A stretch of DNA of 61,107 bases, filler included. It is 8 parts of 8 records of this genome, joined end to end, with 100 filler letters (N's around TTAATTAATTAA, not from the genome) between each part and the next. Parts side by side here need not be neighbours in the genome. Positions count along the whole stretch, not along the records: positions 1 to 11,460 come from SRR7504441_6051; 7 more parts are not named here. One strand, given 5' to 3'. The position numbers were made by a program, and so were the translations under genes. Positions within the stretch are counted from its first letter, which is position 1. Every line of letters begins with the position of its first letter. Of this stretch, positions 1 through 45,634 are shown in pieces. A model generated the notes under the pieces. The model saw nothing but the letters and a program-made list of their open reading frames with translations. It did not search any database and was not told where the DNA came from.

Positions 1-1662
1 CTCAGAGAGGATCAAGAGCCCTCCAGGTTTCAGCAATTTGTGTGTATGAGTCAGGGCGACTCGCAAGTTACGTGTAGCATGGAGCACGTTCACCGCAACC
101 ACACCAGTGAAACTGTGAGCAGAAAATCCCTGGTCGCAAGGATCTATCTCAGCATTGAAGATGCCATACCGTACAAAAGTATAGCGGTGGCGCCAACGGC
201 CTCTCGCACGATTAAGAAACGCATCTGAAAGGTCGGTGAACCAATATTCGGTATCGTCTGGTGGAAGTAAAGGTAGAATGCCTGTGGTCGTGCCGCCGGT
301 TCCTCCTCCAATTTCAAATAGTCGCAATGAGCACTGCATACTCACAGTATCGCGCACCAACGCCTTAACCAGCGCCTGAACCAGGCAGTTGTATAGCCGC
401 ATTGCAGAGCTATCAGCATAGACTGCCTCCGCTTCGTCCATGCTGCCCTGAGGGAACAGCAGCTCGAGGGGATCAACAGTGCCATCAAACACTTCTGCGA
501 GACGAGGTCCGCAACGCTCCACCATTGCAAGCGACGATGCGACTTCTGGGTAATCTTGAATTATCTCTTCATATGAGACATGCTCCAAGGTTTGCTCCAC
601 ATGCATGCTATTCACAAGACGAGGGTGCCATCGAGCCCAAAGCTTGCGGTGATGTTCAAGACGAATTTCATGCATTTCGATTGTAGCCAGGGCTGCCCGA
701 AGATATTGTCGTGCAAGTCTCTCCTGCTTGACAGCGCACACATCCATGCGACTCAGATTCAGAGAGATGTCACTGACAGCAGAACGCATAGCATCAACAG
801 CTAGGTTGGCGATCTTTGGCGATACTACCTTGTTGTGCGATGCCATTGAAGACAATGGATCGATAGCAGCTGCAAATCCAGACTTCACCAACCGGAGCCG
901 AAGATGTCCTCCTTGATGAAAGACCAACTCTGGCTCGTTGCCAAGTGAGGATGGATTTAGTCTTAAAACTGCATCCATATCAGGATTGGCAACAGGGCAC
1001 TCCAAACACTTGAGCCCCAGTGATGGTTGTTCGACTCTGGCGGAACGAGCAAAACCCCAGAGTCCTGCATGAGCCCAAGACCCCACTGGACTCAGACAAG
1101 AGACTATACCAGTGTGTGTTAGCACTATCACTTCGGATCTTGAGTGAGCAGCGGCTTTACTCAGCCGCAGAACGTCATTCTGGACTTCATAGTACGTCGC
1201 CCCCGGTGTCAGCGCACCAGCATAGATTACTTTGTGAGAACTCGAGCTTTTGAGAGCAGAGACATCAAAGTTGAGAGGCAGCACTACTCGTGCAGTTCGT
1301 GTCTTAAGAGGGATCTCGTCCAGTCCAATGGTTGGTACCCAAGCTTCCTCCAAGGGAGAGCGCATGGATGAGACACCTTTCAGCCCCTGGACATGACTGC
1401 TAGTGAGGTACGCAATCTTGGCTCCGCTGGTCGAGCTACATAGCCATCGAAGTGATGAATCAAACGTTCGAACCTGGCCTGCACTGGAAACGCCCCATAC
1501 CGTCTTATCCATGCAGTCATGGGTAGAACCTAGCCTCATTGTGCCCAAACTGCTGAGAATCGATGGTCGGCTGGCGTGGCCTGGATCAGCCAGGGCTGCG
1601 CTCTGGGCACCCATTGCCATTAGCACAGAGGCTCGAAGGTCACTGGCCTCAGGGATGCTCTC
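1..1662 (-). CDS. Final visible exon of the megasynthase: DH C-half, pseudo-KR and C-methyltransferase (absent from ORF track because it runs off the window)
   Basis: Hand translation shows no stop from 1662 to 1: DPLELLFPQGS..AVY, LFEIGGGTGGTT (SAM motif I), EYWFTDLSDAFL, NVLHAT, LLKPGGLLILSE. Confidence 0.93.
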
Positions 1663-4600
1663 CTGACACACACACTGTCAATGGCTTAGCAATACAAGCA
1701 CAAGCAAGTTACCAGGAAAAGCGACTGCTCTTCGAAGGTGAGCCTATCCACTAAAGTGAAGCCTGCATCGTCATTATTCTGCACTGCCCAAAACGAGTGC
1801 AGGCATCGGAAATCGCCACGCATATCGTTTCCAGTTGCTGCATACAATACCTCTCCATCGAATGTGCGGGAAGATGCTGTTGGAATGATCTCGAGATTGG
1901 GTTCAAGTCCTGATAAAGAAGAGAGCTCCACTATGGCATAACTGGCCTGCTCTGTCGACGAAGCTTGGGAGAAGATCTCAAACTGCTGGTGCCTGTCCGT
2001 AGCTAGCTCCCTCATCTGTAACATACACTCGAGCTGTTCGTCCGTGAGGAAAAGAGGTTGCAAAAACCGCGTGGCTGGAACTGTCATAGACCAAAGACCA
2101 GTTTGCTGATGATAGATGTTCCTTACCATCTGCATGTATGCTGTCCCAGGAAATAGTGGTGTCCTGCCCACACGGTGCTGCGCCATGTAATTGCAAGAGA
2201 CGGCTGGCCAGGAGCGCTCCCAGGTGGTAGGGTTGTGTGGTCTTAGCAGAGTCGAATCAAAGCGTTTCAGCTCCACGAGGTCGCTCCAAGTAAACACTGA
2301 GTGTCTGTATACAGTCGCACCAACTTGGGACAATGCACCTGCTAGGCTACTCTCCGGTGTTACAAGTGTCATGTTGTCAGATGCCAGCGTCGCATGACTG
2401 TTTGTGCCTGAGAAGCCAAACGAGCTCAATCCGAGGACCCTGGCCTGGCGAAAGTGACTCTCAGAGGTCATGAGAGCAGCGAAGCCCTCTAAGTCGCACG
2501 TCTCATTGCTCTGTTGCAAGTGCAGATTGGGAAGGAAAGAACCTGATTTCAAGATGTGCAATACTTTCGTCAAGCCAGCTACTGCAGCTGCCCCCTCCGG
2601 GTGCGCAATCAGTGATTTGATTGCCCCCAGGGCTAATGTGTCCGCTGACTCCGTGCAGCTACTCATCACCCTATGCAGCGCACCCACCTCTATCGGATCA
2701 CCCAAGGCAGTACCAGTACCATGCGTCTCCACCGAATATGCCTTAATCAAGCGTGCTTGGCTTTTTGCATCTGCGACCACCTTTTGTTGTGATGGGCCAT
2801 TCGGAGCCATGAAACTTGCGCTACGGCCGTCTTGACCGACAGCAGTCGAGGAGAGGTAAGCTATGGACCAAGCAGCACCTTTCTCGAGGAAAATGGCGCC
2901 ACACGCCTCAGAGCGGCCGTAACCGCTTGCAAGATTATCAAATGTCTTGCAGCGACCATGGACCGACAATGCATGCAGAGCACACATCGCTGCGAAGGAG
3001 AATGGGTGGAGGTTGAGACAGCAACCGGCGACGATGGCACTGTGAGAGCTCTGATGGTACAGGTTCTTATGCGCAATGTCTAAGGCCACTGCAGCCGAGG
3101 AGCATGCGGTGTTCACAGAAAGGCATGGCCCTTTGAGACCAAACAGGTAAGATAGGCGGCCTGAAGCTGAGCTGCCATCCTGGCCATGTGCGGTGTAGAC
3201 GCTCAGGGGGAGCTCCTGCTGCACAGCCACCCAGTCGAAATTGCACAGTCCAATGTAGACGCCCACTGCCATTCCTGCTAGGCCCGATTTGGTCCAACCA
3301 GCTTGCACTGCAGCACTAAAAGCGGCCATTAGAAGCAAACGATGGCTAGGATCGGTGTAGGTTGTCTCAGACTGATTCATCTCAAAGAATTGATCGTCAA
3401 ATCGCTCTATCCCAGTCATGAAATTGCCGTGCTCTGTGTACACGGCCTGGACTGCGTGGACATCGAACCTCAGGGTTGGTATGACGACTGTATTGTCCAC
3501 AGCACAGCACATGGAAGACCACCAAGATTTTGAGTCAGCAACGCCTCCAGGGGCAAGCATGCTCTGGCCACTAATCGCTGCTGTCACAGGAAACTGATCC
3601 TGCCTCAATGAATCTCTCTCTTCTGGAGAGGTATAGTCTCGTTGCTCTGCATGCTGGGATGCATTAACATACAGCGCCATGCTTCTCGTAGTCGGGTAAT
3701 CGAAAACAAGCGTGCGAGGTAGCTTGAGACCGAGGTCGCGCTGAAGAGTTGTGTGAATTCTGATCGAAGCCTGTGACTTAACTCCCGCTGCCATCAAGGG
3801 CACGTCCAATTCAGGAGCCTGCTCCATGACTTCTGTGATTCGTCTAGAGATCACCCGCTGAAGAGCAACAAGCTGCTCCACTGGAGCGCCTCTCCCATCT
3901 ATCCAGTCGTCTCTTCCAGGCTCAGCAAGACGAGATGACACCAAGCTGCCGTCAGATACATTTAGGCCGGATTCTATTAATGGTGGAACTGTCATGCAAG
4001 TGTCTGGCACACTACATAATACCAAATGAATGTTGTCGCCACTCGCCGAGGTTCCACTAACAGTTCCAACCCTCAACTTCTGTCCTGGCAGACTCATTGC
4101 TGCGCTAGGAACACACAGTACGCGAGCTTCGCGCAACTCTTTCATCAGCTGCAAGGTCATGTGTCCGGGCAGGCATTGATTTGACACTGCGAGGCAGGAC
4201 AATAGCAATCCGACGATACCAGCTGCGCTGACAGTGTGACCTGAGATAGCAAACACACAGTAAACATCAGACGGGCCTGAGGCGCACCAAAGTTGGTTTT
4301 GTGATCCAGGATCAGCAGTGGTGCAGTTGGCCGGTTAGAACGAATTCTATTGACCACTGCAAGCACCTCTGGAACGTCGGATTTGGGGTTGCCCTGGCAG
4401 TCACATTCACAGGGGGCAACTATTTGCGGGTATCTCACCATAGCATGTAAGTGGGTAAAGACGAGGTCTTTATCGGTGACATCAGCGCGCAGGAGGCTTG
4501 ATTGTGCCGCTTGCTGCATCCTCTGCGGGTCAGTAAATCCAGGAGGAGTCAATGTGCTGGTCCGACTTGTTGCCCTGTCCAGACCGAGTCATTTGCTGGA

Positions 4601-7600
4601 GCACAAAGGGTTAGCCACCAGCTTAAAAGACTCCCATGTGGTTGCGAGCTCAGAGGAAAGCTGCGACTGAGGAACAAAGCAGAAGAGCCCTCGCCCCAGA
4701 GCATTCCGTCCGCATTCTCTTGCAGGGGACGCATAGAGCCCGTTAGCGACAGGATGCTTCGCAGCAGGATTTCTACACCCCATTCTGGCCGGATCATTAG
4801 CGATACACCCGCAGCGACCGCAGTCTCACACAGCTGCTCAGCTAAAGACTCTGCGGCTTGAGAGACGGCCAGGTACCCAGAGGAGCAGACCGCCTCCACA
4901 TTGCTGTATGGGCCTTCAGTCCTCAGCAAACCAGCCAAAACTCGTGCAACCATGAAACTTGCCAGTGGGACTGTGTAGTCGCTGGTCTGTGCCGCTGTAA
5001 AGACTCCATACTTAGAGATACCAGTCGCATCGACTGCTTCCCTCACGGTCTTGCACAAGCAGTTCATATGGCTGTCCAGATCATCACGTGCACTGCTAAC
5101 AGCCAACAACTTGTCCTCTAAGAAAGCGCCACCTGCTGCAAGAAGCTGAATCGGCGCCTGAGCACACGCCTCCTTCCAGCGGGATGGCACATCTTTTGTT
5201 ATATGGCATCTCTGTTTGTGCAGATTCTCCCACAAATCCGCAGGTGAGAAAGTGCGACCAGCCAGCTTGCATGCAAAGCCAGTCAAGCTGAGACCCTCAG
5301 ACTTTGAGCATTGCAGAACTCGCGGGGCAAAGCAGCTGCTTCCTTTTGGTGCTACCTTGCTAACAAGCTCAACTAAATGTGTCGTGACTTTTCTCAGTGT
5401 CGGGTATTGGAATACCAGTGTGCTCTCGAGCTGCACTGAAGACCCAAGGTCGCGCTGCAGGGTGCTCACCAACTCTATCGCTGCAAGGCTGTCCAGTCCA
5501 TTATCCTCCAACAAATCATCTGGGCCGATGTTTTGTGAGGTGCACTGCTGGACAGCGCGCTGCACCGATAGTTCAATGTCTGCTTTGGAGAGAACAGCTG
5601 CAGTGCTTTGCTGCAGGTACGCTTGTGGAAGAGTGAAATCAGACAGATGGTCAGGAACGGTGCAGTAGAGAGTCAGAAACTGGTGCCACAACATATCGGC
5701 ATATGCAAGACAGGCGTCGTTTGAAACCATGGCCCATTGAATTGCCCACAATCCAATCGTGTTTGTGACCCCTCCTGCCACATACCCGGCTTTCCCTTCA
5801 GACGCCAAGTGGATCCAGTCAACCCCTGCAGCCATTCCAATATCTGTCCACGCGCCCCACTGCATACTGAGGGCCGCGAGCCCAGCAGCGCGGCGGTGCT
5901 GCACAAATGAGTCAAGACAACTGTTTGCTGCGCTGTACACGTGCTGATTGCGCACTCCGAACACTGCTGACGTGGAAGAAAATGCCACAAAGCATCGAAG
6001 GTCTTGATGTCTAATGCTATAGTCTAGATTGTGGGTTCCTTCAAGCTTTGGCGAGAGCACCATTGAAATTTCCTGTATCGAAAGAGCCTCAGTTGGGTTG
6101 GACTGAGCCATGCCAGCTGCATGGATCATGCCATCAACCTGAGGAGCTCGTTCTAGTGCACTAGCCACCGATTCTGCCACAGCAACCTCACATGACACAA
6201 TGTTTGAGCTAGTTGCTTTGCTACGCGAAAGCAACACCAGTCGAGGTGTACCATGCTGAACCATCCATTCTGCAAAGAACGACCCAAGCCCCCCCGTCCC
6301 GCCGGTCATGGCGTAGACCGAGCAGCAATCAAACCAAGGTGTCCTTAGCACCGCTAAGCTGCTGCGCGGCAGTCTGCCTAGCCGAGAGGTCTGATGCCGC
6401 CCATTCCAAACAACAACCAGCTCTGCCGTGAGACCGGACAGTGACTGCTCGTCCAATACATGCCGAGACCCTTTAATGTCGACGATGCTCCAGATTTGGG
6501 ATTGGCTGTCTAGACTCTGAGATCGAATAAATCCCAAAAGCACACTGTGCATCCACTGCCAGCAGGCAGGCCCAAGGGCTCCACAGGTCACCACGCACAC
6601 AGGAACCCCAGGTGGAAGATGTTTCCCAAGACTAATAATATCGGACATCAGAGCCACAACAGCAGCTGGAGTATGTGGCAGTCGCATTGCATCAATACAG
6701 ATCTTTTTGTCTGTAGTTTCATAGGGACCCAGTAAGCCCATCCCAGCATCAAGGATTAAGAATGGCGACTGGTTATTACGCTGCACTTGAGTTGTTGATT
6801 GCCATCTCGTCTGGTACGTGCAGCGGCGGAGCCGGTCACCTTCAAGGATGCCAGGTTCGAAGTATCCAGGCCTCCCACCATCCATGCGGCAAACTAATGC
6901 ACCACATTGGTTGTAAATCCCCGTAGAGCGAGACCAAAATGTAGCATTCTGGTCAAACCCGATGGAACTGATGACGCACTGATCCAGGCCGTCGAAGTAA
7001 AATGGATGACCTATACAACCTCGAGCATCTGCCAACACTGACGCATGTCCACTTGCATCCATCACAGCCACAGCTCGAAGCTCGAATTCCGTTGGATTGG
7101 TGGTCTCTGAGCTGAACTCGAGCTTCTCACAAATCTCATCATCTGCTAACCATACAGCGCTCACACATTGAAAATCTCCGCAATACTTGTTTCCGATCAT
7201 GGAGTACAGTGCATTGCCTTCTAACAGCAGCTCGGTACACGGAGTTTGAACCAGGTCGGGATCAACATCATCAACAGCAAACTCCGAGCACTCAACAATT
7301 TGCATGCTAAAGTTTGTATTCCACATCTCGATTTCAAAGTTGTAGGACTCGAGGATGACCCGCCGAGAGGAGCCATCTACAGAAGCGCGCATTTGTTTCG
7401 CAGTAACGCTAGAGTCTAGAAACATGAACGCTTTGAAGACAGCATCTGCAAGCTTCACTGCATTCATGGACGGAAAGAAGCGTTGACCTATGCAGCTGGC
7501 AGTTTTAAGGTAATAAGTTCCCGGGACGAGCGGGACTTCTCCAACAAGATGATTCTGAAGAAAGCTCAGAAAGGAGCAATCCCATTGATGCTGCCAGACT

Positions 7601-10600
7601 GGAGGATCTGACTGTCGACTGGACAACTGGCCTAGAAGAGAATGCCATCCATTCCTGCTATCATGGTGCATTTTGATCTCCCACCAGGCAAATGCCACCT
7701 GCTTGTACAGGACCAAGTTGTGCTTTTCGGTCGTAGCAACTTCCTGGGATCTAGACGACATGCACGACAGAATTGCATGAGCATTGGTGCCAGCATACCC
7801 GAATGAGCTCACCCCAAGCGCTCCGGTCAATGGCACACCCTGCGATGGCAACACTGAAGGAAGATCTTCCGCAACCAGTATATGAGGATTGACGGCGGAA
7901 AAGTGCAAATTTGGCCCAGCGCAGCCAACCAGAAGAGCACATACACACTTCACCACCCCACTCAATCCAGCAGCGAATTCTGAGTGGCCGAAGTTGCTCT
8001 TAAGCGCCCCAATTACACCATGACATCGTCCTGAGCGGCACCGGTGCACCTGAGCCAAGGCTGAGACTTCAATCGGGTCCCCAAGAGCTGTTCCCGTCCC
8101 GTGCGCTTCGACAGATTCGAGTTGCAATACATTAGCTGCGCCCAAGGCCTCCTCAACAACATGTCGCTGCGCCATACCATTTGGCGCCATGAAGCTTGCG
8201 CTTCGACCATCCTGATTGACTGAAGCAGCATCAATAATCACACGCCTCTGCTCTATATGCAACTTGGTAAAGAACACAGCGGAGCAAGCGTCACCCCGTC
8301 CGTATCCATCAGCTCTGCAATCAAACGTCTTACAGCAGCCATCGGGCGAGAGCGCTTGTAAAGCACACATCATTATCCACACTGCTGAGCCTATGGTCAA
8401 GTTGACCCCTGCACCGATTGCATGCTGACAGCTGGAAGTATTCAAGCACCGGCAGGCTGCGTCCAGAGCCACCAGGGAAGATGAACATGCCGTGTCAACG
8501 CTGAGGCACGGGCCAACTAGCCCCAGTAGGTATGATATCCGACCGCAGGCTGCTGCTGCATGGGCGCCATGTGCAGTGTAGGTACTGATCCGACCTATGA
8601 ACGAACTCCAACCTGTGGATCCGAAGCCCAGAAACACTGCGGTCCTAGAACCAGACAGAGATGTTCGTGTCTGACCTGCCGCAGCAACTGCTCCAAATGC
8701 TGTCTCAAGCAAGACCCGTTGGTGAGGATCAGTGGCCTGGACCTCTGCTGCGCCCATTTCAAAGAATTCTGGGTCAAACAGCTCAGGCTGCTTGATGAAG
8801 TGGCCATGCTGCACGTATATGTTATGCAGTTCTGACTGAGCGTAAGATTCAGGAATACTCTGCACTGACTCGTGTGCTTGAAGCAACGTGGCAAATAGTG
8901 CTGATGGACTTTTGCAGCTGTTGGGTGCAGAGCACTGAATGCCAGCTACAGAGCAGGAACTCTCAGTCTCCTCAGTCGAACACTGGCCCAGCAGCTTTGG
9001 GGCTACAGCGCCTGTATCAGGGTCGCTTAGTTTAAAATCGAGATATTCAGCAATGGCCGCTGCAGTGGGGTACTCAAACACTAGCGTCACAGGGAGCTGT
9101 GATGCGGCCGGTTGCATCAAGGCTTGAAGTGAACGACTCAGGCGCACAGCACTGAGTGAGGTCAGCCCAGCTTGCATGAGCGGTTGCGTCAGGCCCACGT
9201 GGTGCCCCACCAGAGCCTCTACCTGTTCGAGAACAGCATTCTCGATATGAAATCGAGAAGGACCACGCTGAGCAACGCTTCTTTTCACACCGTCTGTGAC
9301 ACTATCTGTCTTTGTGACGGCAACAGCCATAAGCTTGAGCAATCGCCGTCGGTCTAGCTTCCCGGAAGTGTTGAGTGGCCACTCGGCCAGTGCCAGCACC
9401 TCTGACGGCACCATGTAGGCTGGAAGTCTACGTTGGCACAACTCAACAACTGAGTCTGGCTCAGCGGTGTCAGGTACTATGTATGATATCAGTCGGTCGG
9501 CACCGGTGTTGGACCGCAGTATGACAGCATCCCGCACCCCTGGTGCAGTCCGTAACACAGTTTCTACCTCGTTGGCTTCTATGCGGTTGCCGTTGAGCTT
9601 GATCTGATAGTCAATTCGACCGAGAAACTCCAGGTTGCCACTCGCCAACCAGCGGGCCCGGTCGCCGGTGGCATAAAATCTGTGCTGTGCGCGGTGCACA
9701 AAAGCTTTGGCTGTCAGGTCAGGACGCCGCACATATCCCCGTGCTAGTTGCACTCCTGCAATAATCAAGTCACCTGGTGCATCAAGAGTGGACGAAACGG
9801 TCGGACAAAAACCAATGCGACAGCTGATATTTTGTAACGGCACCCCTATGGGCACTGCGCTTTCCCAAGCTCTGTTGACATTCGAAACACTTGCAATAGC
9901 TGCCTCTCCGGTGGTTTCCGTCTGGCCATAGATATTCCAAACAGTGCGAGGTCCCAGCTGTTGTAACTTGTAAATCAATGCAGTCGGGCATTCCTCGCCA
10001 CTGACTACAACTGTACACAGGAAAAGTGGCCATTTCCCGGCCCACAAGTCGACGAGAAGAGACAATACAGAAGGCACAAGCATTCCAAATGAAACAGCCG
10101 CTTGGGAGCAAAGCCGCAAAACAAGCTCCGGAAATAAAAATGCGCGCGGTCTTGATGTCACCAGTGTACTTTGATTCACGAGAGCACACCAAACCATCAC
10201 AAGTGAATCCACAAATGTGAAACTTGTCGCATAGAATGCAACATCTGTCTCTAATAGCAGGAGCTTGGTCGACAATCCAAGTGCGCAGTTGGTCAAAGAC
10301 TGATGAGCAAGGGCAACTCCCTTTGGAACTCCAGTGGAACCAGATGTATACAGGACACAGCACAACCCGTTGTCCCTGGCCCTGGGAGTACAACTCCTCT
10401 CCAGTACCTGTGGATTGGTGCTTTCCTCCTCTATCACCAGCACTGTAGTCTGTCCGAGCAGGAGCAAAGCAAATCTCTTCTGCGCCACCACCACGCCGCA
10501 TTCGCATTGCGTTACCAGATAACGCAGCCGCTCAACAGGGAATCTCGGGTCAAGAGGCACGTATGCGTACCCAACTCGCATGATCCCCACTATCCCCGCA

Positions 10601-11460
10601 ACCTCTTCTACACTCTTCTCTGTGCAGATCCCGATCAAACCCCGAGAAATGCTTGAGGTCAGCAGCCTAGCAGCCAACCGTGTGGTCCTCCTTTCCAGCT
10701 CGCTGAAGGTGACTACCTCGCCCTCAAAGATGACGCCAGCTGCTGCAGGGTTGCACGCTGCCACCAGCTCAAAGATGCTGGGCGCAGTGCCCCCAGCACA
10801 GAATGCCGATGCGGTAGCATTCCACCGCTGCAGAACCAGTTCAGCCTCACAGAGCAGTACCAGCGGCAGGTTGGCAATGGGAGTCCGTGGCTGGCTCACT
10901 ACTGCATGTATCAACTGTGCCAGTCGACGCTCCAGTCGGGCCACCTGCATGCCAACAGAGGTCAGTTGCAAGCAAAGGCGTGGTTTCACCGTTCCGGGCT
11001 GAAACATGGTGACATCGTAGCTGATATGGCCAGTCCATTCGCTTGAATTGCGACGAGATGGTGCTAGGTGAAGCTCCAGCTCCACACTGGCAGCCTGATA
11101 AAGCAAAGGTGTACACACTTCCAAACCTGTCATTGCCGGCATACTCGACTGACCAAAGCCTTCCTCCCACAAGAGCATGGTCTGGTACACTGGTGAGTGG
11201 GAACGACGGCGCTGGAGTTCTGACAGAGCCCCAACAACCTGTACAAATGGGACCGACCCATGACACAGGCATTCCAGCACCACCTTGCTTGTTTCTGCCA
11301 CCAGTGTGCTGAAACCAGCGTTGGAATTGATCGGTATCAAGGCTGCCAGCGTATTTACGAAGTAGCCCACAAGCGGTAGCACCAATTGGTGCTCTCGGTG
11401 AGCATACGGGAACCCCACCACCACTTCTGTCTGCCCAGTGTGCCAGTGTAGCAGTCCGGC
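1..11460 (-). CDS. Hybrid NRPS / trans-AT type I PKS megasynthase, internal fragment open at both ends, 5 short introns
   Basis: One frame after removing GT-AG introns 10989-10945, 4618-4575, 4438-4394, 4287-4241 and 1712-1663. Motifs in order: C-domain tail (GQTEVVVGFP..LVGYFVNTL); A domain (YTSGSTGVPKG, YGQTET, FYATGD, TSGKLDR); PCP (GLTSL); KS (DTACSS, HGTGT, KSNFGH); DH (HLVGEVPLVP); KR (TGGTGGLG, YSAAN); ACP (GLDSL); divergent KS; ACP (GVKS); KS (NTACSS, HGTGT); DH (HRVGRTPLFP); pseudo-KR (GLWGFARS); cMT. No AT domain. Confidence 0.95.
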
Positions 11461-11560
11461 NNNNNNNNNNNNNNNNNNNNNNNNNNNNNNNNNNNNNNNN
11501 NNNNTTAATTAATTAANNNNNNNNNNNNNNNNNNNNNNNNNNNNNNNNNNNNNNNNNNNN
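11461..11560. other. Artificial contig linker (N-run, TTAATTAATTAA, N-run); also at 28820-28919, 32681-32780, 39821-39920, 44257-44356, 53054-53153 and 56673-56772
   Basis: Seven 100-nt spacers of the same design with a six-frame stop cassette; genes are cut at them. Confidence 0.98.
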
Positions 11561-12737: not shown

Positions 12738-12844
12738 GAGCACCGCGCGGGCAAAGGCCGGACCTCGATCTGCAGCAAGCTGTAACGGATTTGCGTCCCC
12801 GGCTGGCCGGCTCTTGTTGGTACATAGGCCTCCCGTCGGCTGTG

Positions 12845-15616
12845 ATGGTCCAGATCGAGCGGGTGTTTGTCACCTGGGCGCCTACCAACGCCGCGAGCTG
12901 CAAGGGCTGCAACTCCAAGTTCTCCAAGGGCGAGTGTAAGGTGGCCTTGTGCTCGCCATCGCCCTGGCACTCGGGTCTGGACAACAACTTCTACCACCTC
13001 CGGTGCTGCCAGGCCCAGCTTTTGAAGTTCGCCGAGCAGCGGCAGCACGCCCCACCGGACTTCTACTACAAGCTGTCTAGTAGCGAGCTGACCAGCTTGT
13101 ACCAGGCCGCTCCGAACATGCTGCCCCAGGTGGACCCGGCTGCCATCGGCCAGCGGACCGTCCTGGACGAGGCGCTCTGGCGACTCAAGTTCGGGCTGCA
13201 GGAGCTGTCGCCCAAGGCCTTGAAAGAGATGCTCGAGCTCAACCAGCGGTACTTTGACGACAGCTTCAAGTCGCCCAAGCTGGCCCACCACTGCGCCCAG
13301 GGGGTGATGTTTGGAGCCACCCCGCCGTGCCCGGCGTGCAGCCAGCGGGCGCTGATTGTGTGCCCGTTCCTGAACGAAGTCCACTGCGAGGGCAACGTGG
13401 ACGGGTTTGCCCGGTGCGAGTACAAGGCCGCGCTGAGCACGGTCGAGAGGAGCAGCTGGAGCGTGCCCAAATCGTGCAATGGGAGCAAGAGCCCGATCCC
13501 GGGGTTCGTGCACCCCGAGCCGTCGCAGGGCAGGGAACTGATCCAGACCGCCGCCAGCAAGAAACCGGCCAAACCGGCCAAACCGGCAAACCCAGCCAGT
13601 CAAGCCGACAGCAAGAAACCAAAGCAGCAGGCGCCAGTGGCGGTGGACAGCACTCATCAGGATTCGGCGCCGGCTGTGGGCTGTGAATTGGATGGGTGCA
13701 CGTTCTTCTTTTCCGGGAACTTTAGCGGGGACCGGCCGAGGCTGATGCAGATGATCAACTCGGCTGCAGGTGGAGTCTGCTCGAAAGCGAGCAAGGCCAC
13801 TCACATTCTAGTCCCAGCAGCGGCGGCGAGCAAGCCCGGCCCGAGCGCCGCGCTGGCCAAGGCGATGAATGCGCGCAAGGACATTCCGGTGGTGGACCAC
13901 AGGTTTGTGGAGGGCTTGGTCCAGAGTCGAACTCTCACGCTGCGCGAGCCGGCCAGCCTGGAGCGATCTGGGCTGCTGCTGTTTGGTTCGAAGCCGGGCG
14001 GGCCGCTCCAGCTGTCTGGCCAGCCGACCCTGGCCGAGGAGCCGGAGGAGTGCGCGGAGCCGGAGCCCGATGGCCGGGCGAGCAAGCGGCGCAAGCTGTC
14101 GAGTGCGAGCGCCCGGTTGGTTCCCGATTCTGAAGGCCCAGGGGGGAACATTGTTGTGACCGACGACGGATGCGACTGCTTCAGCGTGATGTTGAACATG
14201 TTCACACCGACAGACAACAAGTATTACCTGCTCCAGCTCAGCCAGTGCGGCCGGCGGGGCGGGCAGTATGTTCTGTTCATGAAGTGGGGCGCAGTTGGAA
14301 CTAGCGCGCTCGACACCCACTGCAACACCTATGGCGCCAAGGCTGACGCGATCAAGGCATTCGAGGCCAAGTTCAAGGACAAGACCGGCAACAAGTGGGC
14401 CAATAAGCAGAGCTTTGTCAAGAAGCCCGGCAAGTACGCTTTGGTCGACCAGGCAGACGGGGACGAGTCGGAGCCCGAGCCCTCCGAGCCGACTGCGAGC
14501 GAGCAGCAACCGACGCCAAACCCGGCCGAGGAGCCGGAGCTGACCAAGCCGGTCCAAAAGCTGATCCGGACGATCTTCGACGCCAAGGCGGTGGCTGCAG
14601 CCTTCCAGGGGATGCAGCTCGACGCGTCCCGGATGCCTCTGGGCAAGCTGTCGCGCAGGACTATCCTGCAGGCCTACAGCGTGCTCAAGACGATGCTCGA
14701 ACTAGTCGGCGAGAACCAGCTGCCGCCCGAGGTAGTCGAGTCGCGGCTCAAGCCGGCCACGGCCCAGTTCTTCACGCTGATCCCGCACATGCATGCCCCG
14801 GCGGTGATCAGGGACGAGCAGGAGCTCAAGGCCAAGGTGGGCATGCTCGACGACCTGCTGGGGCTCGAGGCCTCCCAGCGGCTGATCAGCGAGCGGTCCG
14901 GGGTGGGCTGCTCGGTGTGGTCTCAGTACCAGAGCCTCGGGCTGGACATACAGCCGCTGGACAGCTCGAGCCCGGAGGCCGGTGCGATCGAGAAGTACGT
15001 CAAGAGCTCGCATGGGGCCACCCACCAGCAGTACATGCTCCAGATCACCGCGCTGTACAAGCTGGATCAGCCCGAGATGAGCCAGCGGTTCGAGAAGGTG
15101 TCCGGCCGGATTCCCAACAGGCAGCTGCTGTGGCACGGCTCGCGCCTGGGCAACTGGGTAGGCATTCTGAGCCAGGGCCTGAGGATCGCCCCGCCCGAAG
15201 CGCCAGTGACCGGGTACATGTTTGGTAAAGGTGTGTACTTTGCGAACTCGGTCTCGAAGTCGGCCAACTACTGCAGATATGAGGAGCACAGGGAGAACCC
15301 GATCGGGCTGCTGCTGCTGTGTGAGGTCGCACTCGGGAACACACACGAGCTGACCAGGGCCAACACGGCGATTGTAAAGCCACCGGATGGGTACCATTCA
15401 GTCAAGGGATGCGGCCAGATGAGGCTTCCGAACAAGACGCAGATGGCGGATGGCGTGTCTGTGCCTTTGGGCCCGATTGTGAAGGACCAGACGTTCCAGA
15501 CCTCGTTGATTTACGACGAATTCATCATTTATAATGAGGGCCAACAGAGGCCGCGCTACCTCGTAGAAGTCAAGTTTGTAGAACCATTTTCTCTCAGCGA
15601 CTCCGACTCTGATTGA
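12845..15616 (+). CDS. PARP1: Poly(ADP-ribose) polymerase, PARP1-like (zf-PARP, PADR1 zinc domain, BRCT, WGR, regulatory, catalytic), intronless
   Basis: CKGC..YHLRC finger; MFGATPPCPAC; MPLGKLS; LLWHGS, GYMFGKGVYFA, KSANY, YDEFIIY (H-Y-E triad). Confidence 0.95.
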   Translation: MVQIERVFVTWAPTNAASCKGCNSKFSKGECKVALCSPSPWHSGLDNNFYHLRCCQAQLLKFAEQRQHAPPDFYYKLSSSELTSLYQAAPNMLPQVDPAAIGQRTVLDEALWRLKFGLQELSPKALKEMLELNQRYFDDSFKSPKLAHHCAQGVMFGATPPCPACSQRALIVCPFLNEVHCEGNVDGFARCEYKAALSTVERSSWSVPKSCNGSKSPIPGFVHPEPSQGRELIQTAASKKPAKPAKPANPASQADSKKPKQQAPVAVDSTHQDSAPAVGCELDGCTFFFSGNFSGDRPRLMQMINSAAGGVCSKASKATHILVPAAAASKPGPSAALAKAMNARKDIPVVDHRFVEGLVQSRTLTLREPASLERSGLLLFGSKPGGPLQLSGQPTLAEEPEECAEPEPDGRASKRRKLSSASARLVPDSEGPGGNIVVTDDGCDCFSVMLNMFTPTDNKYYLLQLSQCGRRGGQYVLFMKWGAVGTSALDTHCNTYGAKADAIKAFEAKFKDKTGNKWANKQSFVKKPGKYALVDQADGDESEPEPSEPTASEQQPTPNPAEEPELTKPVQKLIRTIFDAKAVAAAFQGMQLDASRMPLGKLSRRTILQAYSVLKTMLELVGENQLPPEVVESRLKPATAQFFTLIPHMHAPAVIRDEQELKAKVGMLDDLLGLEASQRLISERSGVGCSVWSQYQSLGLDIQPLDSSSPEAGAIEKYVKSSHGATHQQYMLQITALYKLDQPEMSQRFEKVSGRIPNRQLLWHGSRLGNWVGILSQGLRIAPPEAPVTGYMFGKGVYFANSVSKSANYCRYEEHRENPIGLLLLCEVALGNTHELTRANTAIVKPPDGYHSVKGCGQMRLPNKTQMADGVSVPLGPIVKDQTFQTSLIYDEFIIYNEGQQRPRYLVEVKFVEPFSLSDSDSD

Positions 15617-22059: not shown

Positions 22060-23082
22060 TCACGGATCCCGATCGCACTCAAAGAAGAAAACGCCCAACC
22101 CGCCGATCCCGAGCTCATCTAAGGTGGTGTCGGGCGACACCGCGGCCGCCAGCTCGAGCATCTCGAGCCCTGGCTGACCGGTTCGCTCGGACGACTTGTA
22201 TGTGCTTGTGTTGGGCTCATTTACATGCTCATTTGTAGTCTGTCGGTGCACATAGTGCACCCCAGCTCCGCGGCTGCCGGGCAAGCTCGGGCAGAAAAGG
22301 TCCAGCCAGTTGTGCGCCCCAGGCTCGCCGGACAAGTCCACCAGCCGCTGGCAGCCGCGCGGCCGGCCCTTGCCCAGGCCCCTTGCAGGCCCGTGCGGCC
22401 GGCCTTTGCCCAGGCCCCTGTATGTGTTGCCCAGGCCCCTGTATGTGTGTGAGAGATGGCCTTCGCCCATTCCGTGCACGGGCCAGCTGAATCCGTTGGC
22501 GTCCGTGTGCACTACCTCCCACGGCGGCCCGCGATACCCGACCACCCGAGTGCAGCCCGGCGGCTCCCCCCCTTTCCCTGGCGAGTTTCGGCCGGCGGTC
22601 AACCGGGCGGCCACCTCTGGTGAGAGCAGCAGCTCCATCAACTCGCCGAGCGTGCTGCCCAGCTCCAGCTGGCGGCACTCGACCAGAGCGGCGTAGCGCA
22701 CGCTGAACATATTTTTGGAGCTCCAGCCCGGGGTGCCCTTGATCCCGATTCTTCTCCCCGCTGCCTTCCCGCCCTTGCCGAAATCTTCCCGCCGCACCAG
22801 CGCGCAGCTCAGGAAGCAGCGCCGGCCAAAGTGCTTGTGAAGCGCCCTGACCAGCAGCAGCTGCAGCGCCCCCGGGATGTGCCGATGGAGCGCCAGCAGC
22901 CCCGCCGCCGCCCGGCGCTTGAACCGGTCCGACTGCAGCGGGTGCGTATCCGGGTTCCAGTCGCTGGCTCGCTCGAAGAGCTCCAGCTCGGATCGGGCCA
23001 TGGAAGGAGCATGGAAGGGTCCCCTCACCACCGGACGCCCTCCGCAGCTCCGCTCGAAGAGCTCCTCCAGATCTGCCTCCAT
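22060..23082 (-). CDS. Hypothetical protein (340 aa, intronless) with a short (TY/A)RGLG repeat
   Basis: Long ORF with ATG, divergent from the 23208 gene; no recognisable family. Confidence 0.55.
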   Translation of the reverse strand: MEADLEELFERSCGGRPVVRGPFHAPSMARSELELFERASDWNPDTHPLQSDRFKRRAAAGLLALHRHIPGALQLLLVRALHKHFGRRCFLSCALVRREDFGKGGKAAGRRIGIKGTPGWSSKNMFSVRYAALVECRQLELGSTLGELMELLLSPEVAARLTAGRNSPGKGGEPPGCTRVVGYRGPPWEVVHTDANGFSWPVHGMGEGHLSHTYRGLGNTYRGLGKGRPHGPARGLGKGRPRGCQRLVDLSGEPGAHNWLDLFCPSLPGSRGAGVHYVHRQTTNEHVNEPNTSTYKSSERTGQPGLEMLELAAAVSPDTTLDELGIGGLGVFFFECDRDP

Positions 23083-23207
23083 CTCCCGCCGAGCTCCACC
23101 CGGCTCAGGCCTGCCAGGGGCTCATGTCAGGCTCCAGCCGGCAGGCCAACAGACTGAGAGATCGTGCTCTCATCTCATCACCGGGGCGGCGGTACGCAGG
23201 GAAACAC

Positions 23208-24656
23208 ATGGAGCCCCAGAGCGGCAAGCGGCAGTGCGAAGCGCTCAGCCAGGCGGGCGAGCAGCCGGTCGACCAGATCCAACTGTTGCACCTCCTCAGG
23301 ACGGCGGGGATCGCCGGGCACATCCTGAACGCGTGCATGAGCCGGCACTACAACAGGGTCCGGGCGCGCAACGAGTCGGCCATGGTGCTCTGCAACCTGG
23401 AAGAGCTGAGCAAGACGGCCCGGGCCGCGCTCTGGGATCTCCGGGGGGCACGGGAATCGTCGGCCAACCCGTGGCGCTGGGTGGCCCAACTGTACGACCC
23501 GAGGGCCGAGTGGAAGATGGAAGCTCTGTGCCCGCAGATCCCAGAGCCTGATCGGGACTGGCGGTGGCTAGTCAAGGGGCGGCACTGGGCCGACCTGGAC
23601 GACAAGACGGTCCTGATCCAGGCGGTGAGCGCCATGAGTCGCACCCTGGCCTGTGAGGACAACCCGGACGTGTTGGTTCAGTTTGAGTCGCGCTGGGACC
23701 GCTGCTGGCTCGGGGCCTCGGTGTACGATCTGTGCACCCGGAAGGAGGACTCGTGCTCGGACGAGATGTACCAGCTGGCCTCCGACGCCATCCGCCAGTT
23801 CCACGCAATGCTGCTCCAGGGCTGCCAAGACTCGAGTGGGCCTGACAACCTGGCCGCGATCGCCCGAGCCTGGGGCCGCCGGTGCTCCTTCGACCGGCAC
23901 GTCGCCGGGGTGTTCGGCTACTTGGAGCGATACCACATCCCGCGCCACAACCTCAGCCCGCTCAAGCCAATCTCGCACCAGCTTTTCGTGTCATCAGTTC
24001 TGCCTCTACTCGATCGGTCGGCGCTGCTCGATCGATCGGTGCTAGACGGCTGCTCGGAGGCGACGCTGGCCAACGTGGCCCGGATGGCCAATGCGTGCGC
24101 CGAGCATCTGCCCGGGCTGGTCTTGCCTGATTCGCTCAAAGAACTGCCAGGCCAGCTGGAGCCGGAGCCTACCAATCAACCGCTCACGGACGCTGACGCG
24201 CCCTGTCTTTTCATCACCTCTGACGGCACCGAGCACCAGTTCGTGCCGAGCCAGGTGGTCGGCTCCGGGCTGCTCTGGGCCTGCTGTGAGCGGCCGGCCG
24301 GCTCGGACAGCAGGGGAGTTGTCCACCTGCCGGCGCTCAAAGAAAACCGTTACTTTGGCCGGGTGCTGAGCTTCCTGAAATACGAGGCCGAGCACAGCGA
24401 GGCGACCGACGGGGAGCGCGAGCTGTGGGAGGCCCAGTTCGTGAGCGGCGGGGACGACCAGCTGTTTGCTCTGGTGCTGCTCGCTAACCAACTCGACTGC
24501 AAGAGGCTGCTTGACCTGGCGTGCAAGGCCATCGCTGACGAGATCAAGAAATGCAAAAGCCCGCAAGAGATCCGGCGGCGGTTCAACATCAAGAATGACT
24601 TCACCCCCGAGGAGGAGCAGCAAGTGCAGGCCGAGAACGCCTGGGCAGGAGAGTAG
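23208..24656 (+). CDS. Fusion of a cullin N-terminal repeat and a SKP1 domain, intronless (an upstream in-frame ATG exists at 23124)
   Basis: VYDLCTRK..SDEMY..W..VFGYLERYHI..L.PL (cullin repeat 1, ~23720-24010); ITSDG..WEAQF..LFALVLLANQLDCKRLLDLACKAIADEIK..SPQEIRRRFNIKNDFTPEEE..ENAW (SKP1, ~24207-24656). Confidence 0.88.
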   Translation: MEPQSGKRQCEALSQAGEQPVDQIQLLHLLRTAGIAGHILNACMSRHYNRVRARNESAMVLCNLEELSKTARAALWDLRGARESSANPWRWVAQLYDPRAEWKMEALCPQIPEPDRDWRWLVKGRHWADLDDKTVLIQAVSAMSRTLACEDNPDVLVQFESRWDRCWLGASVYDLCTRKEDSCSDEMYQLASDAIRQFHAMLLQGCQDSSGPDNLAAIARAWGRRCSFDRHVAGVFGYLERYHIPRHNLSPLKPISHQLFVSSVLPLLDRSALLDRSVLDGCSEATLANVARMANACAEHLPGLVLPDSLKELPGQLEPEPTNQPLTDADAPCLFITSDGTEHQFVPSQVVGSGLLWACCERPAGSDSRGVVHLPALKENRYFGRVLSFLKYEAEHSEATDGERELWEAQFVSGGDDQLFALVLLANQLDCKRLLDLACKAIADEIKKCKSPQEIRRRFNIKNDFTPEEEQQVQAENAWAGE

Positions 24657-28412: not shown

Positions 28413-28919
28413 GCCCGGGGGTAGGTACCTAGCCCAGTGAGCACGCACTTGTAGACTCGTGAGCAAGCAGCTGTGACCGGACGAGGCCGCTCGATTGATA
28501 TTAATAGAAAGATGTACGCAAAGAGGCGTGTAAACGTAATCACACCTGCCGTGTTTATTACGTAGAGTCGAGTGGGTCACTGACCCCACCACGATTGACC
28601 ACGTAATTTTTATATAATAACGTAATTGTAATCACGGATACCTTATGGAAGCCTACAATTCAACCCTTGGCTTCCCGTTGCCCAATATTTTGAGATTGGG
28701 GAGATGGGATAGCGATAATGCATTGATCACGGCTCTGGCCACGTTCCTCAAGTGCCAGGCAAGGGGGTGGAAATCAAGTTGAGGGCACGTTTCATTAAAA
28801 CATAGGCATATAATAGCTTNNNNNNNNNNNNNNNNNNNNNNNNNNNNNNNNNNNNNNNNNNNNTTAATTAATTAANNNNNNNNNNNNNNNNNNNNNNNNN
28901 NNNNNNNNNNNNNNNNNNN

Positions 28920-32680: not shown

Positions 32681-32851
32681 NNNNNNNNNNNNNNNNNNNN
32701 NNNNNNNNNNNNNNNNNNNNNNNNTTAATTAATTAANNNNNNNNNNNNNNNNNNNNNNNNNNNNNNNNNNNNNNNNNNNNATACTACTACTGAATTGCTT
32801 TCACTGATATTTGCTTGAGTCTTGCAATCTGATTTTTAATCGCTTCATTTA

Positions 32852-35800
32852 TTATTTTGTATGATCATTGTCCTTTTTTCTATTCCGGCGTTCTGCAAGG
32901 ACAAGTTTAATCACATCCTTCACGAGCTCATCCTTCTCCTCTTCACGAGTTCCTTTGCGTGCTGAGCCACCCCTATAGATCCCAGATTCAAAGTAGGTTC
33001 AGGGCAAGGCATGCATCGCCCAATTTAATTATGATGTGGTAATGATGTGGTGGCACCTTCCAGGCTTGCCAATGATCTCCTCAAGAGTGCGTACCTTGAC
33101 CAGAAACCCATCCAATTCGTCGGAGGGCGCCACCTTCGCGCCAGCCCATGTCTTGTAATTCATGATCACCTGTGGTATGAATATTCGTTAGCCAGGGTCA
33201 GCAATTTGTGTTGTTATCACTGACCGCAAAAGGACAACCAAGCTCCCGAGCTCGTTGCAATGGGTCCTCTTGATTACTCTGTTGATATGAGTAGTCGGCA
33301 GAGATTCCTGCTTCCCAAAACTTGGCAGCCAACCTACAGATAACCCCTCTCACTTACACACAGCATGGCCGACCGTGCTCGTTCTTGTGCCATCGAAGGC
33401 CCGATCGAGCAGATGAACACCTGTCACCGACTATCCTCTTGGGTGCCATTGTTGAACCGCACCTCTGCAGCTGACGGCTTTTGTCGACGGCATATTTCGT
33501 TCTCGTCGGATGCGTGCAACGCCTTTTGTAGATCGTCCAAGTTTATGGTCAGCCCCACTGCTCGACCAATGAGCCGCGTACTCACGCTTACCTGCAATAT
33601 GAAGAAGATTCTCACTTGCAGGCTGAGCTCAAAGCTTACAGAGAGCTGCTGAGCCTGCAACTGATGCACTACATTGGTGTAGTCTCCAGACCAAGCAACA
33701 CAAGCGGTAGCATTTGCTGGAATGACTGCACAAAACAATCCAGAAAAGAACGGCTCTGGTGGACCAAGAAGGACAGATGGCTCTATTCCCTGCAAAGTGG
33801 ATCAGTTGAACGGTTATCACCATGTATTTGCCTGAGTAATCCCAAAGATAGGAAGACTTTCAGCCAGGTGATTCAGCTGAATCATTCCTGCTTCCCAATC
33901 AGGGTGGTGAACAACTGGGTGCTGCAGTCTTTCAAGCTTTTCCCTGAGGGAAATTGTATTGTCAGCAGATGCGGATTACTACATATACTATACATTAGCT
34001 AAGGCGTCACCTCAATTCTTCCAGATTTTGAACCATGCTAGAAGCACCAGAAAAGCCAGAGCTCAAGCTCGCCAGCTCCAAGAGACGATCCACCCCCGCC
34101 CTGGCAACATTTGGTCAGCCCCCCTGTAGGTTGCGATGCAGTTCTTTCTACTAATACCTTGTAAGGCCTTGGCAAAGTAGCTCAGTGCGCACTTTCTTTG
34201 GCTTGTTTAACAGCTCCGGTTTCGATAGAACACTTTTGAGCTGTGGCCAATTATCTGGGTCAATCCCACACACAGAAAGAACTGCCTGGTGGATCAGGGT
34301 GGTGTTCACTTTGAGCGGCAGCCATGGCGCTGTTCCAGAATCTACCCCAAGGCTCTCGAGGCAATCTCCCAAGATTGTGATGGTCTCAGCAAATGGCAGC
34401 ACAGGATCTTGGGAGTTGGTGACAATGTCCATATTCAAAATGGCAGTTTCGTGTGTAATCTCTGATGATTCAGCCCGATGGAATGTTTGACGCATTTCCC
34501 AGCATTTGATCTCAGCTGTCGTCACCCGCCCAATAGCAATCCTTTGTGCAAGATTTCGTGCGAAGGACGCTCTGGGCCAAAAGGGAAGGCACGACAAATC
34601 TCCTTTACTATCCATCATGGTCACTGGATACACACACAGCCGACGTAGAGAGGCCTCGAGTTCATCACAGTACACATGCTCCAAGGCAGGCCCATTCCAA
34701 GCTAGGGCTCCGTGCTGCTTGAAGCAGGCTACCATCGGTTTGAACAAGTTTTCACGGGTCACACATCGCCTGGATGTAAATACTGGATTGCTCATATTCT
34801 CATGACGCTCTACGGAGTCGCATTCAAACAGGGTTTGAACCACTCGGTGGCGGAAGGAAGAGGTAGGATCGGATAGCGATCGAATTGCATCTTCAATATA
34901 CTCATCTTCAGGCTTTGGAGGCAGCCACTCACTATCAAGAATTGTCTGAGCATCTGGACGGCGGCTGGGATCACGATCGAGTAGCAGTTTGATGATGTGT
35001 GATTGGGTTGGATAGATGAGATCAAAAGGATGTGGGAACTCCATATGCTCTCGCAATCCACGAAGAATGGCAACCCTCTCCATCTCTGTGGCAAATGGAT
35101 GCAGAAGCTCGAATAATATAATTCCCAGGCTGTATAGATCCACTGTTTCGTTGTACCGCTTGGCGAATATATACAATTCTGGTGCAGTATATATAGCCGT
35201 GCCGACTCCTGCCGTCATGTCACTACCTGACAGCTCAGGCGCGAATGACTCTCGTTTCACAACTGTAGCATCGTCCACATCGTGTACGCGTGCGTCGCTG
35301 GAGCTTTTGTTCCCTTCTGTTGCCAATCCAAAGTCACCAATTTTGATATCACTGAAAGAGTCGATGAAAATGTTGGATGGTTTAAGATCTCGATGGATCA
35401 CTCCATTCTTATGGATATGTGCCAGTCCTTCACAGATCTGCCGCAGCAGTCGCCACACCTCCTCCTCCTCCAGGATCACGTTCCTGATGACTTGCGATAG
35501 CGTCTTCTCACAGAATTCCATTTGAATGTACAGAAATCTGGTCATAGGCAGCTGTGGCTTAGCCTTTACTGCAGCATCTTCAGATGACTCGGCCTCTGCT
35601 CCACCACCAAGGAACAGCCCTGTTTGGGAGTGCAACCCGACATCACCGTGAATGGTCCAGTTGTTCACAAAAGCCCCGATCCCAAGCTCAGATATGCCCT
35701 CTAGACTTGTTCTGTTCAAGCCGCTAGACTCACTGGTGGAAATGCCTGTTGAGGAGCTTTCATCAAAGCTGGACAATGGGTCACTTCCATTAGTTGGTCC

Positions 35801-44256: not shown

Positions 44257-44383
44257 NNNNNNNNNNNNNNNNNNNNNNNNNNNNNNNNNNNNNNNNNNNN
44301 TTAATTAATTAANNNNNNNNNNNNNNNNNNNNNNNNNNNNNNNNNNNNNNNNNNNNTAAAAACACTGTGTGTATGTTAGAGTG

Positions 44384-45523: not shown

Positions 45524-45634
45524 CGCACCGCTGACCGCGTCCAACGTACACCCAACGACTTCACGAGCCACCCCAGGGCTTCCATCGAGTTGATCGTCGA
45601 CCCCGTCCAAGCCGTACCGGGTACCGGGTGAAGG

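Follow-up and report, generated by a model that had tools for sequence, protein, structure and literature searches.

A probable eukaryotic gene fragment for an acyltransferase-less hybrid peptide/polyketide synthase, with short predicted introns, from an uncultured marine microbe

Contig 1 (positions 1–11460) of the 61,107-base stretch of DNA analysed here (the window) carries an interrupted gene for a hybrid nonribosomal peptide synthetase (NRPS) and polyketide synthase (PKS), which raises the question of whether such a gene is eukaryotic or bacterial and to which synthases, if any, its acyltransferase (AT)-less modules are related. The window consists of eight contigs joined artificially by linkers of 44 N, TTAATTAATTAA and 44 N. 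We conclude that contig 1 is very probably an internal fragment, of at least 3,743 codons, of a nuclear gene that encodes an AT-less NRPS/type I modular PKS hybrid in an uncultured marine eukaryotic microbe, and its transcript is predicted to be spliced.

The gene lies on the minus strand of contig 1, a point on which the original prediction was silent. Three stop-to-stop frames on this strand, at 4549–11508, 1686–4334 and 1–1677, comprise 2319, 882 and 559 residues, and the removal of five GT..AG segments yields 3,743 stop-free codons that are open at both contig ends. The more than 3,700 codons expected after excision of five introns of 44–50 nt are thus confirmed, with individual lengths of 45, 44, 45, 47 and 50 nt. 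The segments are:

10945–10989, minus strand: intron 1, 45 nt, GT..AG, in frame and stop-free
4523–4566, minus strand: intron 2, 44 nt, GT..AG, shifts the frame and takes out a stop
4394–4438, minus strand: intron 3, 45 nt, GTGAGA..CAG, in frame and stop-free
4241–4287, minus strand: intron 4, 47 nt, GTGCGC..CAG, shifts the frame
1663–1712, minus strand: intron 5, 50 nt, GTAACT..CAG, shifts the frame and takes out a stop

All five segments begin with GT, end with AG and measure 44–50 nt, and the removal of each restores either the reading frame or conserved protein sequence. Four of them (introns 1–4) have support from homologs. As intron 1 is in frame and stop-free, nothing in the frame forces its removal, but homologs still show the gap: in the unspliced translation it is an exact 15-residue insertion relative to the condensation (C) domains of P0351 in three of the four high-scoring segment pairs (HSPs) listed. 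Introns 2–4 all fall within the second ketosynthase domain (KS2), and the spliced protein aligns without gaps over the three junctions to P0192, a protein from marine assemblies described below. Removal of intron 3 joins the two parts of HAMGN..SDVPE (HAVGN..SDVPE in P0192, HGTGT..GDPIE in other KS domains), and removal of intron 4 restores K-T-N-F-G-H; the KS motifs H-x-x-G-x..D-x-P-E and K-x-N-x-G-H are contiguous only once the introns are removed. For intron 5, an alternative of 38 nt (1712–1675) keeps the frame equally well, and the one HSP found in this region does not cross the junction. The pentanucleotide CTGAC is located 19 nt before the 3′ end of intron 1 and also near the 3′ end of intron 2. 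Taken together, these features argue strongly that the five segments would be lost from the pre-mRNA as short spliceosomal introns.

Several other candidate introns were rejected. A 36-nt segment (4631–4596) is coding in the P0192 alignment, and the segments 4829–4785, 9773–9711, 9503–9456/9450 and 3372–3316 encode conserved KS or adenylation (A)-domain sequence. A scan of contig 1 for frame-joining GT..AG segments found 106 on the minus strand, compared to 99.2 with control dinucleotides, and 44 on the plus strand, compared to 59.8; the scan is uninformative, since the matches are about as many as with control dinucleotides.

Introns of the same size class had also been claimed for housekeeping genes, and these are indeed present on contig 4. 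A GCN2-like kinase gene contains a 42-nt GT-AG intron (36113–36072) with an in-frame TGA, and a calmodulin-like gene with four EF hands (38920–39480, minus strand) contains three introns:

39345–39305, minus strand: calmodulin-like gene intron, 41 nt
39253–39214, minus strand: calmodulin-like gene intron, 40 nt, GT-AG
39035–38977, minus strand: calmodulin-like gene intron, 59 nt, GT-AG

The 41-nt intron fits the 24-residue spacing of EF-hand loops only as a GC-AG intron; the nearby GT donor would mean a 26-nt intron and a 5-residue insertion. The kinase gene, for a GCN2-like eIF2-alpha kinase (34154–37300, minus strand), begins with an RWD-like region (MSGLLEEQENEVQALKAIFG), also contains a kinase domain and must extend past 34154 via further frame changes.

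Domains of the synthase were assigned by a Pfam search of the three minus-strand frames with a cut-off of E<=1e-3. The families found are Condensation (partial), AMP-binding, AMP-binding_C, PP-binding, ketoacyl-synt (three copies), PKS_DH_N (two copies), KR and Methyltransf_12, while Acyl_transf_1 has no match in the three frames. With T for thiolation, DH for dehydratase, KR for ketoreductase, ACP for acyl carrier protein and cMT for C-methyltransferase, the domain order is C(partial)-A-T-KS-DH-KR-ACP-KS-ACP-KS-DH-cMT(partial). The end of Ketoacyl-synt_C is separated from the start of PKS_DH_N by about 85–100 residues in KS1 and KS3, with a KS-to-DH gap of only about 85–90 residues, and a carrier domain comes straight after KS2, so that none of the three modules has space for an AT. 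The NRPS module, three KS domains, absence of AT, C-methyltransferase and open ends of the original prediction are thus all recovered by Pfam and frame reading. The features of the gene, from its 5′ side, are:

10990–11460, minus strand: exon 1, C-terminal part of the Condensation domain (Pfam profile positions 262–420 of 456, 51.7 bits), open from the contig's first base
9358–10767, minus strand: adenylation domain (Pfam AMP-binding, 186.8 bits, and AMP-binding_C)
About 10215–10204, minus strand: F-V-D-S motif of the A domain, with the Lys of SGKLDRR at 9366–9346
9148–9171, minus strand: serine motif AGLTSLSA of the carrier (T, or peptidyl carrier protein, PCP) domain (Pfam PP-binding, two stretches in P0001)
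7900–8949, minus strand: KS1 (Pfam ketoacyl-synt and Ketoacyl-synt_C)
8496–8479, 8103–8089 and 8001–7984, minus strand: KS1 motifs DTACSS (Cys), HGTGT (His) and KSNFGH (Lys/His)
7045–7644, minus strand: DH1 (Pfam PKS_DH_N, 38.8 bits), with HLVGEVPLVP (His) and DASGH (Asp)
5842–6318, minus strand: KR (Pfam KR, 139.6 bits), with GGTGGLG and YSAAN
5374–5538, minus strand: ACP1 with GLDSL (Pfam PP-binding, residues 1991–2045)
4005–5346, minus strand: KS2, split by introns 2–4 (alignment to P0192 residues 1456–1852)
4896–4879, minus strand: KS2 motif EAVCSS (Cys), with HAMGN (His) and HKTNFGH (Lys, His) also assigned from the 78-row alignment
3666–3839, minus strand: ACP2 with AGVKSQAS (Pfam PP-binding, 24.4 bits)
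2517–3578, minus strand: KS3 with NTACSS, HGTGT and KSLIAH (Pfam)
1627–2222, minus strand: DH2, interrupted by intron 5 (Pfam PKS_DH_N, 37.6 bits), with HRVGRTPLFP and the Asp in PEASDLRAS
13–315, minus strand: C-methyltransferase with EIGGGTGG, cut by the contig end (Methyltransf_12, 60.6 bits, P0003 residues 455–555)

The catalytic residues are well preserved. The Cys, His, Lys and His are kept in the alignment columns of all three KS domains, the His and Asp in both DH domains, and the KR retains its nucleotide-binding and Tyr motifs. An apparent lack of the catalytic Asp in DH2 was rejected, since the DH alignment places this residue in PEASDLRAS. With three catalytically equipped KS domains and a PP-binding domain per module, the protein is a type I modular PKS, AT-less in the descriptive sense of “trans-AT” as no AT domain is found inside the modules, and its C (partial), A and T domains, in this order, form an NRPS elongation module. 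Methyltransf_12 is the type used for C-methylation in PKSs.

In the assembly line that we propose, the C domain would condense an upstream chain onto the unit that the A domain loads on T; the presence of this C domain implies that something lies upstream of the NRPS module. KS1 would extend the chain with a malonyl unit, presumably supplied in trans, and KR and DH would then yield an enoyl intermediate. KS2 and ACP2 could mediate either a further extension or a hand-over of the chain, without β-processing, and KS3 would extend again, with dehydration and α-C-methylation. The remaining part of the KS3 module and chain release would be located beyond the contig. We infer the supply of AT activity in trans, the substrates and the product from this domain content.

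The A domain has an unusual binding pocket. It reads F-V-D-S where F-D-x-S is usual, with a Val at the position of Asp235 (GrsA numbering) and an Asp next to it; in 199 of 246 HSPs from local alignments to NRPSs, the synthase Val faces an Asp. Among solved structures, the closest relative is the module 2 A domain of LgrA, and the Val is opposite Asp235 in both LgrA A-domain alignments. Asp235 is described as binding the α-amino group (PMC11355689), and keto-acid-activating A domains as having a hydrophobic residue in its place (PMC13643306). The hallmark of α-amino-acid A domains is therefore missing here, while the C-terminal Lys is present; unlike typical keto-acid modules, the synthase module has no KR between A and T. 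No support for a Val-Asp code in β-amino-acid A domains was found in the literature searched, nor for our presumption that β-alanine A domains start with “VD”. The substrate is thus uncertain; candidates are a carboxylic acid without an amino group and an amino acid held in another way. The N-containing product originally suggested is possible, but is not assured, because Val replaces Asp235.

The relationships of the KS domains were analysed with a tree of 78 rows: 74 KS domains of 28 proteins (picked from 354), KS1–KS3 of contig 1 and the divergent P0192 KS. KS domains that were partial, covering <330 of 434 query residues, were left out, and the tree was obtained by a quick IQ-TREE search (LG+G4, 460 columns) with support from the Shimodaira–Hasegawa-like approximate likelihood ratio test (SH-aLRT). 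KS1 and KS3 are placed within a 19-row clade (SH-aLRT 99), whose members are from the dinoflagellate Durusdinium trenchii (P0005), a fungus (P0165) and five further AT-less proteins. The bacterial trans-AT KS rows are mostly elsewhere (23 of 27), beside KS domains of bacterial NRPS-PKS hybrids; the three KS domains of P0130 are placed among cis-AT rows that adjoin the eukaryotic clade, and the remaining trans-AT row stands alone. A tree constrained to group KS1 and KS3 with 24 bacterial trans-AT KS domains is 306 log-likelihood (lnL) units worse (p-value of the approximately unbiased test, p-AU, 3.8e-05). Thus, the KS domains are outside the clade that defines the bacterial trans-AT PKS family, and the term “trans-AT” of the original prediction holds as a description of an AT-less synthase but, by tree and constraint test, not as a family assignment. 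This placement agrees with an independent loss of AT in algal multimodular PKSs, as described for microalgae (PMC4661987).

Sequence searches returned only distant relatives. Among prokaryotes (one genome each, 185,579 species), the best of 17 loci has 41% identity, over the KS only. Protein searches (lengths 1275–5000 aa in a 5.8-billion-protein collection) gave local identities of <=42%, and a search with A-T-KS1-DH1 against a library of 1.84 billion representatives gave identities of <=38%, the top scores being those of multi-module NRPSs with the score summed over several stretches. No match above about 44% identity was found in the searches made.

The closest relative found is P0192, a 2,503-aa protein from marine assemblies of the European Nucleotide Archive (ENA), with a cluster of three members on contigs of 10.7–16.3 kb. 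It is collinear with the KR-ACP-KS2-ACP-KS3-DH portion of the synthase over 1,451 residues, with 32% identity. KS3 is sister to P0192_KS1 (support 99) and KS2 to P0192_KSdeg (support 100). P0192 differs in the enoylreductase (ER) domains of its upstream module (Pfam list), and its known part has no A domain or methyltransferase (MT). This collinearity points to a family whose order of modules has been kept in two or more distant marine organisms. Processing domains are absent from the KS2-ACP2 module, and KS2 itself is very divergent, with an end branch of 2.27 in the KS tree compared to a median of 0.54. It is not a classical non-elongating KS (KS0), as the Cys, His, Lys and His are kept, and it has the signature HA[MV]GN..SDVPE in common with P0192.

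DNA of contig 1 recurs at 99–100% identity in four sequencing runs of three studies (seawater, “aquatic” and estuary), on short low-depth contigs; the matching pieces listed carry 0–3 differences. A DNA contig of run X1 covers 4195–4485, including introns 3 and 4, in unspliced form with no differences, as expected for DNA. Runs X2 and X3 contain contigs ∼85–90% identical to the KS1 region (8387–8765), with 54 differences in 379 bases in one record; these KS fragments are paralogous modules or related strains. A scan of metagenome contigs of the Joint Genome Institute (JGI) with the MT exon gave 48 pattern matches, none of which is a relative.

The origin of the gene can now be weighed. Modular NRPS/PKS genes are best known from bacteria, and most of the high-scoring database relatives are bacterial, so that the gene might be a bacterial or bacterium-derived NRPS/PKS gene in decay, with insertions or assembly errors as its interruptions. 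However, every one of the five interruptions is of the GT..AG type and of nearly uniform length; two that are in frame and stop-free match homolog gaps or motif breaks exactly; identity to bacterial genes does not exceed 41%, the KS domains group with eukaryotic sequences, and independent metagenome contigs carry the same interruptions with no differences. We regard this explanation as barely credible and a bacterial origin as very unlikely; the original argument that introns speak against a bacterial contaminant is upheld, since it is short GT-AG introns that interrupt the gene. Decay within a eukaryote could be suspected from the divergence of KS2, from ACP2, which has KSQ instead of DSL, and from the A domain without Asp235. 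Such a pseudogene is highly improbable in view of 3,743 stop-free codons with all catalytic residues checked intact, and of the KS2 signature, whose retention in P0192 at only 32% overall identity argues for selection. As both gene ends are missing, an AT domain might also reside in the missing parts of the same gene, or the system might be of mixed cis/trans type: dinoflagellate synthases are described in which one cis-AT module comes after six without an AT, and contigs of Karenia brevis that combine AT-less and cis-AT types are reported in the same account (PMC5725682). None of the three modules seen here has an AT, however, and of the ∼30 multimodular algal PKSs described in PMC4661987 nearly all are without an integrated AT; we consider a mixed arrangement rather doubtful.

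Some points weigh against our preferred reading of a nuclear AT-less gene of a marine eukaryote. The seven sequencing runs returned with contig 1 DNA include no RNA run. The KS tree is the result of a quick search in which Durusdinium is the sole named alga-type reference, and the group used for the constraint was named after the tree had been seen, with trans-AT rows that do not form one clade in the free tree. No AT or phosphopantetheinyl transferase (PPTase) family was found in the 40 other open reading frames (ORFs) of the window (>=130 aa). TIGR01733 scores 302 bits on the A domain, just below its cut-off of 317.4. The synthase gene is all that contig 1 contains, with no flanking eukaryotic gene as an anchor, and the Atlas search with the poly(ADP-ribose) polymerase (PARP) gave no usable taxon. 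Finally, the tetranucleotide correlation of contig 1 with contigs 2, 3, 5, 6 and 8 is just 0.44–0.58.

The last point bears on whether contig 1 stems from another eukaryote than most contigs of the window, i.e., whether the bin is chimeric. Its GC content of 0.529 is uniform (0.50–0.54 in 1-kb windows), GC at third codon positions (GC3) is ∼0.49–0.57, compared to 0.61–0.83 for genes on the GC-rich contigs 2, 6 and 8, and the GC-rich contigs examined look intron-poor, with uninterrupted PARP and Skp1-fusion ORFs. Tetranucleotide correlation is nevertheless 0.78 with contig 4 and 0.84 with contig 7, and GC values form a continuum within the other contigs (0.48–0.71 in 1-kb windows), where contig 6 has genes at GC3 of 0.61 and 0.79 side by side. 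Because GC varies so widely within other contigs, the contigs could equally well stem from one mosaic genome or from a chimeric bin; in addition, low-GC, intron-rich compartments with giant PKS genes are described in GC-rich picoeukaryotes (bioRxiv 10.1101/2025.04.21.649811). A separate eukaryotic source for contig 1 thus deserves consideration, although we find it unlikely. Of the original claim of a host nuclear gene, the eukaryotic gene stands, whereas an organism shared with the rest of the window is just plausible, as the composition is unlike that of five of the seven other contigs.

The pattern recalls the big outlier chromosome (BOC1) of Mamiellales, which is described as a low-GC region with many 40–65-nt introns in a GC-rich, intron-poor genome (PMC3491373, PMC3879977). 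Giant PKS genes are reported to be conserved in this region, with like regions in Pelagomonas and other lineages (bioRxiv 10.1101/2025.04.21.649811). The size class of the introns and the GC contrast between contigs would fit the BOC1 pattern if the contigs share one genome. However, the introns of BOC1 are reported to be rich in AT (in Micromonas, GC <43%) and to have no branch-point motif (PMC3879977, PMC3491373). The five PKS introns have a GC content of 0.44–0.57 and the kinase intron 0.60, with none of the six under 0.43; since the introns are not AT-rich, and CTGAC is found near the 3′ end of two of them, contig 1 lacks a defining feature of BOC1. A pelagophyte origin was considered and not favoured, as pelagophyte introns are reported to average 103–177 bp. 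An Atlas search with the N-terminal half of KS2 provides a weak lead to haptophytes: its first cluster is 79% Eukaryota, with Haptophyta the commonest group, and has a score of 0.95 but just 146 shared features.

The other contigs contain plainly eukaryotic genes for a GH79 hydrolase and for PARP1-like, GCN2-like kinase, Skp1-domain, WD40 and ankyrin proteins. Where examined, the GC-rich contigs seem gene-dense and poor in introns. On contig 2, the PARP1-like protein (zf-PARP, WGR, PARP_reg and PARP; 12740–15616, plus strand) is encoded by one uninterrupted frame of 958 codons, and a 577-codon frame (22923–24656, plus strand) has a C-terminal Skp1 dimerisation domain, its remainder being unrecognised save for a weak Cullin match. 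On contig 6, a 527-aa ORF (44387–45967, minus strand) with matches to Epimerase, 3Beta_HSD and NAD_binding_4 has a GC3 of 0.61, and a neighbouring NHL-repeat ORF 0.79; fatty-acyl and thioester reductases belong to the fold class of NAD_binding_4. Two overlapping opposite-strand frames of 740–756 codons at 47227–49665 (GC 0.71) have no Pfam family in either, and thus at least one of them is probably a by-product of high GC. The linkers are located at 11461–11560, 28820–28919, 32681–32780, 39821–39920, 44257–44356, 53054–53153 and 56673–56772, and since the window is an artificial join, features across these points are artefacts. A repeat search of the window returned linker artefacts only, and Rfam gave no matches.

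Comparison with known systems indicates that the gene is a real eukaryotic example of the already known algal and dinoflagellate AT-less hybrid synthases. The microalgal PKSs described by Shelest et al. (2015, PMC4661987) are likewise eukaryotic nuclear genes with many modules and no integrated AT, with KS domains distinct from bacterial ones and occasional NRPS parts; in MicPKS2 of Micromonas sp. RCC299, C and A domains may be present at the N-terminus. According to this account, microalgal multimodular PKSs are AT-less as a rule and lost the AT independently; NRPS parts and MT domains are exceptional, as most algal trans-AT PKSs have no MT and NRPSs are rare. Compared by description, contig 1 differs from these PKSs in the full C-A-T module inside its line and in the cMT (PMC4661987). 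The Karenia brevis contigs 1930 and 10563 (Van Dolah et al. 2017, PMC5725682) also combine an NRPS module with AT-less PKS modules and a possible MT, and their KS domains fall in a protist clade. These transcripts differ, again by description, in six tandem ACPs and an N-terminal NRPS module (PMC5725682), whereas contig 1 has a minimal KS-ACP module between two full modules. PKZILLA of Prymnesium parvum (bioRxiv 10.1101/2024.01.29.577497) resembles contig 1 as a giant AT-less synthase with GT-AG introns, minimal KS-ACP “pass-through” modules and a single MT. In that account, the pass-through KS domains are non-elongating KS0, in contrast to KS2, which keeps its catalytic residues, and an NRPS module is not among the features described. 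Bacterial trans-AT PKSs (PksL-type P0189, P0199, P0225 and P0231) have in common with contig 1 the lack of an integrated AT, a cMT and the NRPS hybrids, but the KS domains of contig 1 do not group with theirs, and the gene of contig 1 has predicted spliceosomal introns. The KS-flanking linkers PF22336/PF22621 occur in several of the bacterial trans-AT matches and are not found in the contig 1 frames at the same Pfam cut-off.

Three features make the gene interesting in its own right: its A domain with Val235/Asp236, a KS-ACP module that is divergent yet conserved, and what may be a low-GC genomic setting with short introns. We tentatively speculate that the gene represents a family of hybrid synthases, conserved but so far undescribed, of uncultured marine picoeukaryotes, with an intact divergent KS-ACP insert, an A domain for a substrate other than an α-amino acid (Val235/Asp236) and a location in a compartment of low GC and short introns within a GC-rich genome, as a counterpart of the BOC1/giant-PKS arrangement of Mamiellales; we do not consider this extended view probable. 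As the introns are not AT-rich, such a family would probably belong to another lineage than Mamiellales.

Marine protists use giant AT-less synthases to make compounds of ecological importance, including fish-killing polyethers, and to our knowledge very few of the synthase genes have been linked to products. The fragment adds an example of a hybrid peptide/polyketide synthase; its source organism is uncultured and turns up repeatedly in metagenomes of marine and estuarine water from three studies. Type I PKS genes are reported to be widespread in single-cell genomes of marine protists (preprint 10.64898/2026.04.17.719054). If the low-GC and GC-rich contigs share one genome, contig 1 would be a further case of a giant PKS in a low-GC, intron-rich compartment, a pattern recently proposed as recurrent in small marine eukaryotes (bioRxiv 10.1101/2025.04.21.649811).

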